64,000 nucleotides of DNA from Escherichia coli (GCF_003018255.1 NZ_CP027440.1), one strand, 5' to 3'; shown: positions 21,536 through 24,476, counted from the stretch's first letter. Made by a program: numbers and translations. The notes: generated from the letters alone by a model not told the origin.

Positions 21536-24007
21536 TTAAAAATCAGCCTGACTCGGGATCAGTTTTTGCCAGATGGCTGAAACGTATTTTGCCTGGTAAC
21601 GCGCATCGTGCAGCGCGTTATGGCGTTCACCTTCGAATGGAATAGTCGTTCTTGCGTCGAAATCCATCACCAGTCCCAGAGCAACCATCGTTCTTACATC
21701 GCGATCATTGGTGTAACGCCACGGGCAGGGGATCCCCTGCCGTTCATATGAACGGCGTAAAATCACGTTGTCGAAAGTTGCACCGTTACCCCAGACCTGA
21801 ACAAAAAATTCACCGGAGTTTTCGTCGATAAATTCCCGGAATTGCAGCAGTGCATCATCCAACGGGATTTCATCGGTCAGAATGGCGGATTGTGCTTCGC
21901 GTGACTGTTTCAGCCACCACTTAATGGTGCCCCGATCGATGACCCCGCCTGCGGTTTCCAGATCGATAGTTTTGCTGAATTCTGGCCCCATCTCTCCGGT
22001 TGCCGGATCAAAAAACTTACCGGCTATAGAGTTTATTGGCGCATCAGGATTTTTTCCCATTGTTTCAAGGTCAATCATCAGATGGTGCCACAACCTGCTG
22101 GTGGATGTGATTTCATGATGACCGTTCACTTTAATTAAGGGATTTGCTGTCTCGCCAGTTTTATTATCGCTGGCGTGATACTGATCGCTGACAGTGTTCT
22201 CCTTGTGCAGATGTTCAGTGCCTTCCATTTCCTCCGGATCATTTTCCTGAGCTTCAGCCTGATTCTCTTCATCGAATGTTTCCTGGTTGGTTGCGTTCCC
22301 CATCACCGCACCACAGTCAGGACAGTTGCCGCCACCGGTCTGACCGCATGCGGTGCAAACTTTTTCCGGTTCTTGTTGCACTTCTGGTTCAGGCAGTTTC
22401 GTTTCTGGCTCGTTTTGTAACGCATTTGGACTGTTTTGTTCCGCTTTCTGGTCGTTTTGTTCCGATTCGGGCTGGTTCTGGTTCACAGAATCGCGGGTTT
22501 CAATCCCCTTAACCCATTTCGGATCATTCGGGTCGCTAATCCCTTCAACAAATTCACCACGTGATGCAGCAAGCAATTTATCGGTGTCAGGCTGGCTGAT
22601 ATTGGCTGCCTGCATAATTTTGTTTACTTCGTCAGCGGTAACTTTTACCGGCTCTGGTTGTTCTGAATCTTCTGCGGTATCTGTATTTTGCTGTAAGCCC
22701 GTATATGTGCCATTTTTTCGGGCAAAATATTCTTCTTTTGAGATTTCGGTACCACCGGCAGCCAGCGCCTTGTCCAGGCCAGAAAGTTTGTTTGCCCTGC
22801 CGTATTTTTCCCCGTCCTTATCGGTAAAGACGAAATAAAACGGTCCTTCACGCTCTACAGATGGTTCAGCTTCCACCAGGATTTCATTTTTTTGAGAATT
22901 GGATTCCGCCGTCTCCACTGGATCAGTTTGTGCTGCTGACGACAGGATAGCATCAGCAGAGCTCTGGTCTGTTTCTTCATGTTCAAACACGCCCTTTGTC
23001 GTCAGGTATTCGCTGATGTATTTGTTCAGTGCAACGGGATCTTTGTGAATGTCGATCGGGCGCTCACGAACAAGGCCAAAAATAGTCTGACGGTCATAGC
23101 GAAGCGCATCAGGCTGTTTGCGCATTGATGCAGAGATACGCTTCCAGTCTTCGCGATCCTTGTCGATAACCTCATTTTTAGCCCAGCGATGGATGGTACC
23201 GTCAATGTTTCCGGCATCAATATCACCAGGCCAGAGAGCGTAAGCCAGCTCTTCATCCAGGGTTTTCCATGTCTGCTTGTATTCGCGACGAATGGCAGTA
23301 GTGACAGGGTTGATTTTTGCTGCTGAGTTTTCAGTGTGCTGTTGGTTGACTCTGGCGCGGGCCAGCTCAACAACAGAAGTATGTTTCCCGGTTTCTTTTC
23401 GTTCTGCTTCGCGACGTTTTTTCCAGGTGCGCATCTCTGCCTGAATTTCTGGCCATTTGGCACCAGGCTTACATTTATGCTTAACCCACCCGATGGCATG
23501 CAGTTTAATCTCCGGATACATGGCGTTAACTTCTGGCATTTTCATCAACGCTTCAACGATATGTCCGTCGAAGGTTGCCATGTCTTCCTGCAACAATTCC
23601 TGTGCGCTAATCACCATATCAACGGTGATGTTTTCACATGTGTCGAACTTAACCATGACAGCGTTCTGTACTTCAGGGGACAGCTTGTCAAAAGTGACGT
23701 TCATCGGATCTGATTCAGTCTCAACCGGGACAAAGGAAGCAGACGCCTCATCCCAGCGGTTTTCCAGCATATATTCAGCATCCCAGGAGTCGAGGGCTGG
23801 GCGGGGTGTACCGGGTTTATCCTCACAGACAAGAAATTTATAAGCGCAGTCCTGAGCAGCCGGATAATGTTCAAGGAATTGCCAGTGAAATTTTGCGCGG
23901 GCGCGACGTTCATCACCGGCTTCAATGGCTGTGGCCACAGCAACAGCGCCCTCGTTTTTTATTGCCTGTTCGTCAGGAATGGCGGCGCAAATAAATATTT
24001 TACTCAT
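21536..24007 (-). CDS. large phage exonuclease with C-terminal DnaQ-like (DEDDh) 3'-5' exonuclease domain and a CxxC-x-CPDC zinc ribbon
   Basis: 823 aa; C-terminal MIDLETMG...WGNGATFD...HNALHDARY exonuclease motifs; acidic low-complexity middle; CTACGQTGGGNCPDCG. Confidence 0.7.
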   Translation of the reverse strand: MSKIFICAAIPDEQAIKNEGAVAVATAIEAGDERRARAKFHWQFLEHYPAAQDCAYKFLVCEDKPGTPRPALDSWDAEYMLENRWDEASASFVPVETESDPMNVTFDKLSPEVQNAVMVKFDTCENITVDMVISAQELLQEDMATFDGHIVEALMKMPEVNAMYPEIKLHAIGWVKHKCKPGAKWPEIQAEMRTWKKRREAERKETGKHTSVVELARARVNQQHTENSAAKINPVTTAIRREYKQTWKTLDEELAYALWPGDIDAGNIDGTIHRWAKNEVIDKDREDWKRISASMRKQPDALRYDRQTIFGLVRERPIDIHKDPVALNKYISEYLTTKGVFEHEETDQSSADAILSSAAQTDPVETAESNSQKNEILVEAEPSVEREGPFYFVFTDKDGEKYGRANKLSGLDKALAAGGTEISKEEYFARKNGTYTGLQQNTDTAEDSEQPEPVKVTADEVNKIMQAANISQPDTDKLLAASRGEFVEGISDPNDPKWVKGIETRDSVNQNQPESEQNDQKAEQNSPNALQNEPETKLPEPEVQQEPEKVCTACGQTGGGNCPDCGAVMGNATNQETFDEENQAEAQENDPEEMEGTEHLHKENTVSDQYHASDNKTGETANPLIKVNGHHEITSTSRLWHHLMIDLETMGKNPDAPINSIAGKFFDPATGEMGPEFSKTIDLETAGGVIDRGTIKWWLKQSREAQSAILTDEIPLDDALLQFREFIDENSGEFFVQVWGNGATFDNVILRRSYERQGIPCPWRYTNDRDVRTMVALGLVMDFDARTTIPFEGERHNALHDARYQAKYVSAIWQKLIPSQADF

Positions 24008-24102
24008 TGTGTTTAAACCTCATTACAGATTTCAGGGTGAACGAATCCCTGCCATTGCTGGCATTTTTAATCCGTTGGTATGGCGTTAATATGGCTGGCG
24101 GG

Positions 24103-24291
24103 TTATCCAGCCGGTGTTTCGTTATTCAGGTACAGCGATACTTTGTTTAACGGGAGACATTCACCGGAAATTTTTTGCTCGTCTCTTGCCTGATGGCAGG
24201 ATTCTTTACTGGCATAAATTCCGGTAATCACATTCTGTGGCTCACCCGTTATAAGAAAAACCGTCATTACCAGTGCAAATGCAGAAGTCAC
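24103..24291 (-). CDS. small hydrophobic protein (possible Kil-like host-interaction protein)
   Basis: 62 aa; GTG start preceded by GGAGGG; N-terminal hydrophobic segment AFALVMTVFLITG; sits in the kil position of the leftward early operon. Confidence 0.45.
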   Translation of the reverse strand: MTSAFALVMTVFLITGEPQNVITGIYASKESCHQARDEQKISGECLPLNKVSLYLNNETPAG

Positions 24292-24476
24292 TGCTGCCCT
24301 CCGAAAATGCCAAGTTTAAGAAGGGCAATTCTGGAGAGTATGGAATTATCATTGAGAAGATAAGGCTCATATTTTCTCATCCTGATGGCGTCCTCAGTAA
24401 ACTCCCGGTTACTGAGCAGAATACCAATATTAAAACACCCTTCAGACGTATTAACGTTTGGTAGTGACGTTTCCAT
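24288..24476 (-). CDS. hypothetical small protein
   Basis: 62 aa; ATG preceded by GAGGA at 7 nt; stop overlaps the start of the next gene (translational coupling). Confidence 0.45.
   Translation of the reverse strand: METSLPNVNTSEGCFNIGILLSNREFTEDAIRMRKYEPYLLNDNSILSRIALLKLGIFGGQQ

Follow-up and report, generated by a model that had tools for sequence, protein, structure and literature searches.

What does a large exonuclease do in the recombination region of a prophage when no single-strand annealing protein accompanies it? The question is raised by a prophage lying in a stretch of 64,000 nucleotides of Escherichia coli DNA (NZ_CP027440.1), the whole of which we call the window. The prophage is integrated beside ompW, with relatives at the same position, and its exonuclease ORF (21536..24007, minus strand) encodes 823 residues from an ATG start codon with a GAGG sequence ~11 nt upstream. 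PHROG 2082 ("exonuclease") matches the ORF end to end (residues 1–823 of 823). That this is not a chance reading frame follows from the 99% identity of the protein to a 440-sequence database cluster, whose members are named exonuclease or 3'-5' exoribonuclease, and from the length of its relatives, most of which are also 823 residues long among the 120 matches listed. Annotations of the gene vary between exonuclease, exodeoxyribonuclease VIII and 3'-5' exoribonuclease, the last being frequent at NCBI.

A Pfam scan of the ORF returned a single domain, PF16473 (Rv2179c-like), with 207.9 bits against a cut-off of 27 (E = 1.2e-61) and with the whole profile covered (positions 1–177 of 177). This DEDDh 3'-5' exonuclease domain occupies residues 641–813 (21569..22087, minus strand), and its residues Asp-646, Glu-648, Asp-746, His-796 and Asp-801 are invariant across eight diverse homologues of 49–72% identity. 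The closest solved relative by sequence is T4 DexA (8KEL, profile E = 2.5e-15). Given the five invariant DEDDh residues, a Pfam score far above threshold and the kinship with DexA, the domain is predicted to be catalytically competent. The C-terminal 183 residues match PF16473 end to end and conserve the DEDDh residues, as in T4 DexA and Mycobacterium tuberculosis Rv2179c (RNase AS), but those are small single-domain enzymes, whereas here the domain is fused behind a RecE/YdfE scaffold of ~640 residues.

To describe this scaffold we used an AlphaFold2 model of the full-length protein. The N-terminal domain (residues 1–222; 23342..24007, minus strand) is modeled as a folded α/β plus helical unit with pLDDT mostly above 90 and corresponds, by its identity to YdfE, to YdfE_N. 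It is followed by a helical domain (residues 237–345; 22973..23299, minus strand; pLDDT >90), at which the region homologous to the N-terminal part of Rac RecE begins in BLASTP, and by a small β-hairpin/helix domain (residues 385–438; 22694..22855, minus strand; pLDDT >90) with strands at 390–396, 399–405 and 420–422 and helices at 408–416 and 424–431. As modeled, residues 1–438 thus form three confidently folded domains without an assigned fold. A zinc ribbon (residues 549–570; 22298..22363, minus strand) of the form CxxC-x7-CxxC, with Cys-551, Cys-554, Cys-562 and Cys-565, sits between two linkers (residues 439–548 and 571–640) that contain 23% Asp plus Glu and more than 41% polar residues. 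These acidic linkers are predicted to be disordered, and pLDDT falls below 50 at 439–456, 500–545 and 571–635. The preliminary description, made from the nucleotide sequence alone, had proposed a large multidomain exonuclease with a DEDDh domain, a zinc ribbon and an acidic linker, and Pfam, residue conservation and AlphaFold2 together locate all three.

Comparison with RecE reveals where the scaffold comes from. Residues 262–625 align with residues 278–591 of Rac RecE in BLASTP (E = 3e-60), and the alignment halts at RecE residue 591, close to the start of the RecE PD-(D/E)XK 5'-3' nuclease domain (RecE residues 564–866). At the protein level residues ~470–625 are nearly identical to RecE, in which all four cysteines of the zinc ribbon are kept. 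DNA alignment and blastn define a mosaic segment shared with Rac recE (22134..22588, minus strand; residues ~474–625) in which lie the zinc ribbon, the acidic linker and a conserved motif, DKLLAASRGEF...DPNDPKWVKGI; identity over 450 bp is 76% with a 42-bp indel counted in, is higher outside the indel, and stops abruptly at ~22134 (codon ~625). The NCBIfam RecE equivalog model PRK09709 scores 266 bits and does not reach its cut-off of 1269, and no Exonuc_VIII or PDDEXK domain was found in the 823-residue protein by the Pfam scan. Because the similarity to RecE ends close to the start of the RecE nuclease domain, we read the protein as a RecE-type scaffold in which the 5'-3' PD-(D/E)XK nuclease, together with recT, has been swapped for a 3'-5' DEDDh domain. 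A Chi site at 22097–22104, ~30 bp from the mosaic junction, was considered as a cause of the junction and is no more than noted, being a single case with the junction on the wrong side for the usual model.

Upstream of the RecE-like region, residues 1–256 are 90% identical to YdfE of the K-12 Qin prophage (pseudogene ydfE), and the N terminus of RecE does not align there. Relatives of 89–99% identity carry the precomputed labels PF27430 (YdfE_N) and PF27432 (YdfE_C). Judged by sequence, K-12 ydfE is the N-terminal remnant of a protein that the 823-residue gene encodes intact and in full length. A candidate C-terminal fragment in K-12, exoD of DLP12, was discarded, BLASTP finding no similarity to it (best E = 0.7). 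K-12 has only the truncated copy, which IS2 cuts after ~256 homologous residues, and the portal gene is frameshifted in the nearest relative of the prophage; both would fit a decaying, non-functional RecE relic in a cryptic prophage. We consider this very improbable, given a gene that is complete here, an 823-residue frame that is intact in most of the 120 clusters among the matches listed and in three spot-checked genomes of ~85% DNA identity, invariant catalytic residues, and N-terminal domains that are confidently folded in the model.

The gene lies at the end of an early-left operon of the dicBF type, transcribed leftward, which we assigned by homology and by synteny with Qin and at whose head stands a DicA-like HTH repressor (26081..26500, minus strand; 30% identity to K-12 DicA, E = 9e-16). 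The order is DicA-like repressor, ydfA-like gene, DicF-like sRNA, dicB, ydfD-like gene, exonuclease, xis and int, where the excisionase gene (21223..21471, minus strand; Pfam Exc, E = 3.6e-7; PHROG 629, E = 5e-34) and the gene for a λ-type integrase (20115..21245, minus strand; Pfam Arm-DNA-bind_1 and Phage_integrase) follow the exonuclease. The same gene order, with the repressor, is found in K-12 Qin (dicA-ydfABC-dicF-dicB-ydfD-ydfE-intQ), and at the DNA level dicF-dicB-ydfD and the beginning of ydfE are ~80% identical to Qin. In contrast to Qin, the prophage has a Rac-like right arm (YdaS/YdaT type) and a shortened DicF locus (24654..24692, minus strand). Alignment of this locus with K-12 dicF showed that the 5' UUUCUGGUGA and the intrinsic terminator are kept, the latter as a terminator-like stem at 24679–24660 followed by a T run, and that the 3' half lacks ~17 nt; the Rfam DicF model gave no match at the gathering or E ≤ 1 thresholds. 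From the shared order and identity, the cassette appears as the intact counterpart of the decayed dicF-dicB-ydfD-ydfE-intQ region of K-12 Qin.

Both small genes upstream of the exonuclease belong to known, named families. The first (24288..24476, minus strand) encodes a 62-residue DicB cell-division inhibitor homologue, 58% identical to K-12 DicB (Pfam DicB, E = 1.4e-33, 114.8 bits against a cut-off of 27; NCBIfam CellDivInhibDicB, 102 bits with a cut-off of 100). DicB proteins are characterized by a MinC-dependent block of division, seen as filamentation. The second (24103..24291, minus strand) encodes a 62-residue YdfD-like protein of the DUF1482 family (PF07358, E = 3.4e-15, 56.1 bits against 25), which is 47% identical to the K-12 YdfD "lysis protein" and has a hydrophobic N terminus beginning MTSAFALVMTVFLI. 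The dicB stop codon and the ydfD-like start codon overlap by 4 nt (GTGA), and KilR occupies the same slot in diverged relatives, so the earlier placement of two small coupled genes in the kil position holds. The accompanying suggestion that both could inhibit host cell division finds support in homology for the DicB-like protein, but its hydrophobic neighbor is a YdfD/DUF1482 homologue. Division block and protection against phages have both been reported for DicB (PMC6832061), whereas K-12 YdfD is a lysis protein and IspG inhibitor that is not known as a division inhibitor (PMC8835842); by analogy, at 47% identity, the YdfD-like protein may act in lysis and IspG inhibition. The two would then be host-directed genes, for division block and lysis, within the same operon as the exonuclease.

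We then asked whether an annealing protein lies anywhere near or within the exonuclease gene. Its stop (21536) is separated from the xis start (21471) by a gap of 64 bp, and there is no minus-strand ORF of more than 101 residues between the exonuclease and the repressor gene. Pfam and PHROG scans matched no annealing protein in the ORF or its neighbors, ORFs in alternative frames had zero Pfam matches, and neither RecT, Bet, Erf nor Sak is listed anywhere in the PGAP annotation of a 98.9% identical prophage. The model of residues 1–470 is confident (mean pLDDT 84.8) and fold searches with it returned no significant structural neighbors; thus no known annealing-protein fold is detected in this region. 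The claim that no Bet/RecT-like partner lies between the exonuclease and xis is therefore upheld, and the proposed RecT/Erf/Sak profile search, alternative frames included, detected no annealing domain inside the large ORF or outside it.

The arrangement can be set against the two best known phage systems. Like Rac RecE-RecT, the exonuclease lies in the early-left operon with a kil-type gene upstream of it and xis-int downstream, but it is of the DEDDh (3'-5') rather than the PD-(D/E)XK (5'-3') type, it is followed by xis and not by a translationally coupled recT, and ralR and rcbA, like recT, are absent. With λ Exo/Bet and SynExo pairs it shares the early-left position beside xis and int and, presumably, action on DNA ends; it differs in lacking an annealase partner, in its opposite polarity and in its unrelated fold.

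To see whether this absence is peculiar to the locus, we surveyed the scaffold family. A first homologue search was saturated with relatives of ~90% identity or more, and diversity was obtained from a search of a representative library with residues 1–470. Among 62 long homologues, Exonuc_VIII was present in 20, DUF3799/PDDEXK in 14 and an Rv2179c-like domain in 11. In a gene-context sample of a dozen or so loci, which is not a census, recT came next after PDDEXK-type members in all four loci (Rac, L014, L023 and L024), whereas DEDDh-type members were followed by xis/int, with an annealing gene at none of 13 other loci and likewise none in the window. These 13 loci differ in their immunity regions and integration sites. 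Within the sampled loci of the family, nuclease type tracks the annealing gene. Of 5426 complete E. coli genomes, 4060 contain the DEDDh segment, with up to seven copies per genome. The lack of an annealing protein is nothing peculiar to this locus but the form in which the DEDDh-type cassette is conserved and very commonly found. Stand-alone homologues are located among accessory ea-region genes.

These counts bear on the idea that the protein is a recombination exonuclease whose annealing protein is supplied in trans, for example by RecT of a co-resident Rac-like prophage or by a host factor. There are several lambdoid prophages per E. coli genome, the DEDDh segment itself reaches seven copies, and residues 262–625 are held in common with RecE. 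What is kept of RecE, however, is the N-terminal, non-catalytic region, without which RecET recombination still proceeds (PMC11611040), RecE and λ Exo have the opposite polarity, the annealing-free arrangement is conserved over the 13 other loci with their varied immunity regions and integration sites, and the sampled PDDEXK-type members always keep a RecT of their own. On this balance we regard a partner in trans as improbable.

The family of the nuclease domain raises the alternative that the protein is an exoribonuclease, resembling RNase AS and acting on RNA 3' ends, for instance in the processing of the operon's transcripts and sRNA or in host RNA decay. The family PF16473 takes its definition from a 3'-5' exoribonuclease, Rv2179c of M. 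tuberculosis, many database names read "exoribonuclease", and dicBF-type operons encode an sRNA made by processing (PMC10448788). Against this, a search by sequence retrieves no solved structures other than those of a DNA exonuclease, T4 DexA, the domains found elsewhere on the scaffold are dsDNA exonucleases, and the gene occupies the recombination position beside xis and int. We judge an RNA substrate unlikely. T4 DexA is part of a DNA-degradation and scavenging set, and this kinship, with the ea-region setting of the stand-alone homologues, would suit a nuclease of host takeover, exclusion or counter-defence that is unrelated to recombination and directed against nucleic acids of the host, of competitor phages or of defence systems. 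Co-transcription with the host-directed genes for DicB (PMC6832061) and YdfD (PMC8835842) points the same way. Yet no defence-system model matched significantly (the best PADLOC hit had E = 0.023 over 23 residues), and fusion to a RecE scaffold favors a context of DNA ends or recombination, which leaves such a role unlikely in our estimation.

The reading that we prefer, and hold to be probable, is that the gene encodes an intact YdfE-type mosaic, a DEDDh 3'-5' DNA exonuclease that stands outside the Red/RecET systems and works alongside host recombination. The protein would be a Mg2+-dependent 3'-5' exonuclease, with DNA 3' ends as its likely substrate and the nuclease tethered by a flexible linker to a RecE-type N-terminal platform. 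Digestion in this direction would leave 5' tails, not the 3' tails that load Redβ/RecT-type proteins, so that no cognate annealing protein would be needed or present and the enzyme would not be a two-component recombinase of the Red/RecET type. No biochemical or genetic work on the 823-residue protein was found in the searchable literature, and the titles and abstracts of papers that mention ydfE are unrelated to ydfE function.

Host recombination enters this reading through the content of the prophage. In the 98.9% identical prophage PGAP annotates RusA and no Gam or other RecBCD inhibitor, and the window's own prophage has eight Chi sites in 43.9 kb (1 per 5.5 kb, with a 5:3 strand bias); the whole window has 10 compared with 2.4 expected from shuffles. 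With RusA and Chi sites but neither an annealing protein nor an annotated RecBCD inhibitor, the prophage probably depends on host RecBCD/RecA, and the enzyme would be an accessory that trims 3' ends. In these respects (annealing protein, annotated RecBCD inhibitor and Chi) the prophage resembles the lambdoid phages without a Rec module described in the main text of Zheng, Casjens, Davidson, Amundsen and Smith 2025 (PMC12315714), and its DnaQ-like nuclease in the early-left operon recalls the DnaQ-like nucleases in Rec modules that the same text describes. We found no mention of a RecE-scaffold/DEDDh fusion in that main text, which also states that homologous recombination is often inhibited, not promoted, by 3'-5' exonucleases, so that the enzyme might lower recombination as well as raise it. 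We also considered a Chi-rich prophage of the LLS type. Two phage relatives that carry the gene are indeed Chi-rich, PhiR55_1 with 22 sites in 42.9 kb (18 on one strand) and vB_EcoS-689R5 with 14 in 34 kb, although the Chi density of the window's prophage is at host level only and far below that of LLS-type phages, given there as 1 Chi per 1.9 kb, so that this idea is only partly supported. Long chromosomal residence may be the cause of the host-level density.

A broader proposal is that the YdfE/RecE N-terminal region is a nuclease-agnostic platform, bringing to one and the same target any end-processing nuclease joined to it, either a 5'-3' PDDEXK domain with RecT or a 3'-5' DEDDh domain alone, and that its DEDDh form represents a second, annealing-free strategy of phage recombination; we offer it as a speculation that is unlikely as it stands. 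Such a strategy might take either of two forms, in one of which 3' ends would be trimmed so that host RecBCD, Chi and RecA act on the phage. In the other, the enzyme would make 5' tails that anneal by themselves, as do those made by XthA in E. coli in vivo cloning.

The gene type is a very common one in E. coli prophages, and the finding is largely an ordinary one. It does provide the correct reading for an inconsistently annotated gene that roughly three in four complete E. coli genomes carry, and it identifies K-12 ydfE as the stump of an 823-residue exonuclease gene. That RecT tracks the nuclease type fits a coupling of annealing proteins to 5'-3' resection, and a role independent of RecT and of nuclease polarity is suggested for the RecE N-terminal region, which enhances linear-linear recombineering. 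Should the enzyme modulate RecBCD-dependent recombination in the host, it would extend the recent picture of lambdoid phages that rely on the recombination of their host in place of a system of their own. If the platform is nuclease-agnostic, the DEDDh-type proteins would offer a way into the N-terminal two-thirds of RecE, which have long lacked an explanation.

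The left 20 kb of the window corresponds to the E. coli tonB-yciA-yciB-yciC-ompW region, and a lambdoid prophage integrated beside ompW extends rightwards from 20115. The last three genes of its leftward early operon are the exonuclease gene (21536-24007, minus strand) and two small genes, also on the minus strand; xis (21223-21471, minus strand) and int (20115-21245, minus strand) come directly downstream. The stretch that begins upstream of dicF and extends into the 5' part of ydfE shares 80% DNA identity with the K-12 prophage Qin, whose dicBF operon transcript has been described as spanning ydfABC-dicF-dicB-ydfDE (PMC10448788). 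Because of this identity and the DicA-like repressor gene upstream (26081-26500, minus strand), the window holds the intact version of the Qin dicBF operon. The operon, with the exonuclease gene at its end, is of the DicA-type repressed kind.

The preliminary description had placed the two small genes in the kil position, and rightly so: the first (24288-24476, minus strand) is a dicB homologue (Pfam E 1.4e-33, NCBIfam DicB domain score above cut-off, 58% identity to K-12 DicB), and KilR occupies the same slot in diverged relatives of the locus. The second (24103-24291, minus strand) encodes a DUF1482/YdfD homologue with 47% identity to K-12 YdfD, an annotated lysis protein; the two ORFs overlap by 4 nt, and their K-12 counterparts overlap likewise. 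DicB is known to inhibit division and reportedly also shields cells from some phages (PMC6832061), and YdfD is an IspG-inhibiting lysis protein (PMC8835842). The segment just upstream of dicB (24444-24661, minus strand) resembles STnc100 weakly (33 bits, where the gathering score is 47). As it is ~95% identical to the Qin dicF-dicB spacer and 77% identical to the Rac region upstream of kilR, it is a conserved leader of kil-type genes. At 24654-24692 (minus strand) lies a shortened DicF-like sRNA locus in which the 5' UUUCUGGUGA and the GGCGG...CCGCC-U5 terminator are preserved; it lacks ~17 nt of the K-12 DicF 3' half and was not reported by the Rfam DicF model.

A Pfam scan of the 823-aa protein returned a single domain, the Rv2179c-like DEDDh 3'-5' exonuclease PF16473 (aa 641-813, E 1.2e-61). 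Residues Asp-646, Glu-648, Asp-746, His-796 and Asp-801 are invariant in an alignment with seven homologues (49-72% identity), stand-alone phage enzymes included, and a decaying relic, considered as an alternative, is largely excluded. A CxxC-x7-CxxC motif (Cys-551, Cys-554, Cys-562 and Cys-565) is flanked by two acidic, polar stretches (23% Asp + Glu). The full-length AlphaFold2 model has pLDDT values below 50 at 439-456, 500-545 and 571-635, which fits disorder of these linker segments. The model of aa 1-470, built on a 91-sequence alignment, has a mean pLDDT of 84.8, with 339 residues at 90 or above, and contains three folded units (1-222, 237-345 and 385-438). Alignment and models together show a DEDDh domain with its full set of catalytic residues. 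Predicted-disordered linkers and a zinc ribbon join it to a folded platform that RecE also has. Every element of the large ORF named in the preliminary description is thus present, and its interpretation was also correct; the feature itself belongs to a family with many annotated members and sits where that family normally does.

Over residues 1-256 the protein shares 90% identity with the product encoded by the Qin pseudogene ydfE, which in K-12 is cut off by IS2. Residues 262-625 match residues 278-591 of Rac RecE (E 3e-60); near-identity begins at about residue 470 and takes in both the zinc ribbon and the acidic linker. The DNA block common to the window and Rac recE spans 22134-22588, and identity ends abruptly at about codon 625. 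In Rac this block is followed by the RecE nuclease domain, recT, ralR, rcbA, xis and int, whereas in the window it is followed by the DEDDh domain, xis and int. On this evidence, the protein is a RecE-type scaffold whose catalytic domain has been exchanged, the annealing gene having been lost with the old domain. A Chi site, GCTGGTGG, lies within the gene (22097-22104, plus strand), ~30 bp from the junction, a proximity that may be coincidence.

The absence of an adjacent annealing partner, likewise claimed earlier, was borne out. Only 64 bp separate the exonuclease stop codon from xis, minus-strand ORFs between the exonuclease and repressor genes reach at most 101 aa, and ten alternative-frame ORFs across 21882-25029 matched no Pfam family. 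In NZ_CP027373, a prophage of 98.9% identity, PGAP annotated RusA and a DUF968 protein, and RecT, Bet, Erf and Sak are absent from the annotation throughout; alternatively, the protein could be a recombination exonuclease served by an annealing protein in trans. Foldseek searches with the aa 1-470 model found nothing in the PDB at E <0.6 and no significant match in BFVD; within the limits of these libraries, an annealing fold was not detected in the predicted structure, and its fold has no recognised relative.

Searching 1.84 billion representative proteins with aa 1-470 yielded only 189 relatives. Of 62 long ones, 20 have Exonuc_VIII as the C-terminal Pfam domain, 14 have DUF3799 (PDDEXK-like) and 11 have Rv2179c-like. 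A RecT-family gene overlaps the stop codon in all four PDDEXK-type loci examined (Rac and the compared loci L014, L023 and L024). Every DEDDh-type locus examined leads directly into xis/int without an annealing gene; these comprise the window, three relatives of ~85% DNA identity at ompW or potC, phage vB_EcoS-689R5, and diverged members (proteins P0123, P0135, P0220, P0228 and P0251) down to 19-55% identity over full-length alignment. Nuclease type therefore correlates with RecT presence, a clean split in a small sample. Other scaffold members (locus L016, 4001-6717; proteins P0126, P0130, P0131 and P0132) end in modules that Pfam does not recognise and that have only a PHROG label, PHROG 7838 'exonuclease' or PHROG 26058 (unknown), and one such member is followed by a Sipho_Gp157 gene instead of RecT. 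These may be further nuclease/partner variants, or the 'RecE-2' proteins without a nuclease domain noted in the available text of Zheng et al. (2025, PMC12315714).

The literature search found no experiment on the 823-aa protein. We consider it rather probable that it is a metal-dependent 3'-5' exonuclease. DNA 3' ends would be the likelier substrate, since T4 DexA, a DNA exonuclease, is the closest relative in sequence with a solved structure (profile E 2.5e-15) and the scaffold elsewhere carries dsDNA exonucleases; an RNase AS-like exoribonuclease was considered as an alternative, as was a takeover or counter-defence nuclease. A 3'-5' enzyme would leave 5' tails, as opposed to the 3' tails coated by Red-beta/RecT-type proteins, so a missing annealing partner would be expected rather than a gap. 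The prophage may depend on RecBCD/RecA of its host, the exonuclease playing an accessory part, a role we propose only tentatively and think somewhat doubtful. The prophage has 8 Chi sites in 43.9 kb (5 on the plus strand), and the whole window 10 against 2.4 expected from shuffles; NZ_CP027373 has no annotated Gam; and two phages in which a relative of the enzyme is present and no annealing protein is annotated are Chi-rich, vB_EcoS-689R5 with 14 Chi sites in 34 kb and the complete phage PhiR55_1 (PV340571) with 22 in 42.9 kb, of which 18 are on one strand. Together with RusA, these observations fit reliance on RecBCD/RecA, but Chi sites in the window's prophage are no denser than in the host, which counts against it. 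PhiR55_1 resembles the LLS-type 'no Rec module, Chi-rich' phages as the available text of Zheng et al. describes them. Its stand-alone 190-aa DEDDh homologue (1532-2104, 57% identity) adjoins ea22/eaE and yfdP-yfdQ-HD-hydrolase genes.

Elsewhere in the window, five strong STnc100-family matches (119-172 bits) lie at 37959-38171 and 39931-40910 (plus strand), four of them repeated head to tail every ~260 bp; two tRNA genes (36984-37142) lie upstream. A sok antitoxin RNA match (31548-31722, plus strand, 117.7 bits) marks a hok/sok-type module in the prophage right arm, and hokD is annotated at the corresponding position in a near-identical relative. In the NZ_CP027373 prophage an ompC-like porin gene (2878-4041) is annotated among the tail genes, the portal gene is frameshifted, and small TonB-family and TolA-like genes lie close to the lysis region.

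The 594-bp DEDDh segment is present in 4060 of 5426 complete E. coli genomes, at up to 7 copies each; a 440-member cluster is 99% identical to the protein, PHROG 2082 matches it end to end, and its N-terminal domains are called YdfE_N and YdfE_C in more recent Pfam releases. On its own, the DEDDh domain turns up in 1213 phage records, among them T4-like DexA and stand-alone 190-aa temperate-phage genes. The available text of Zheng et al. (2025, PMC12315714) already notes DnaQ-like 3'-5' nucleases in lambdoid recombination modules, puts the Chi-rich lambdoid phages without such a module at 22%, and states that RecBCD aids growth of the prototype, LLS. What is added here is the recognition of ydfE as the stump of the 823-aa exonuclease gene, the exact position of the RecE/DEDDh mosaic junction, and the correlation of nuclease type with RecT presence.
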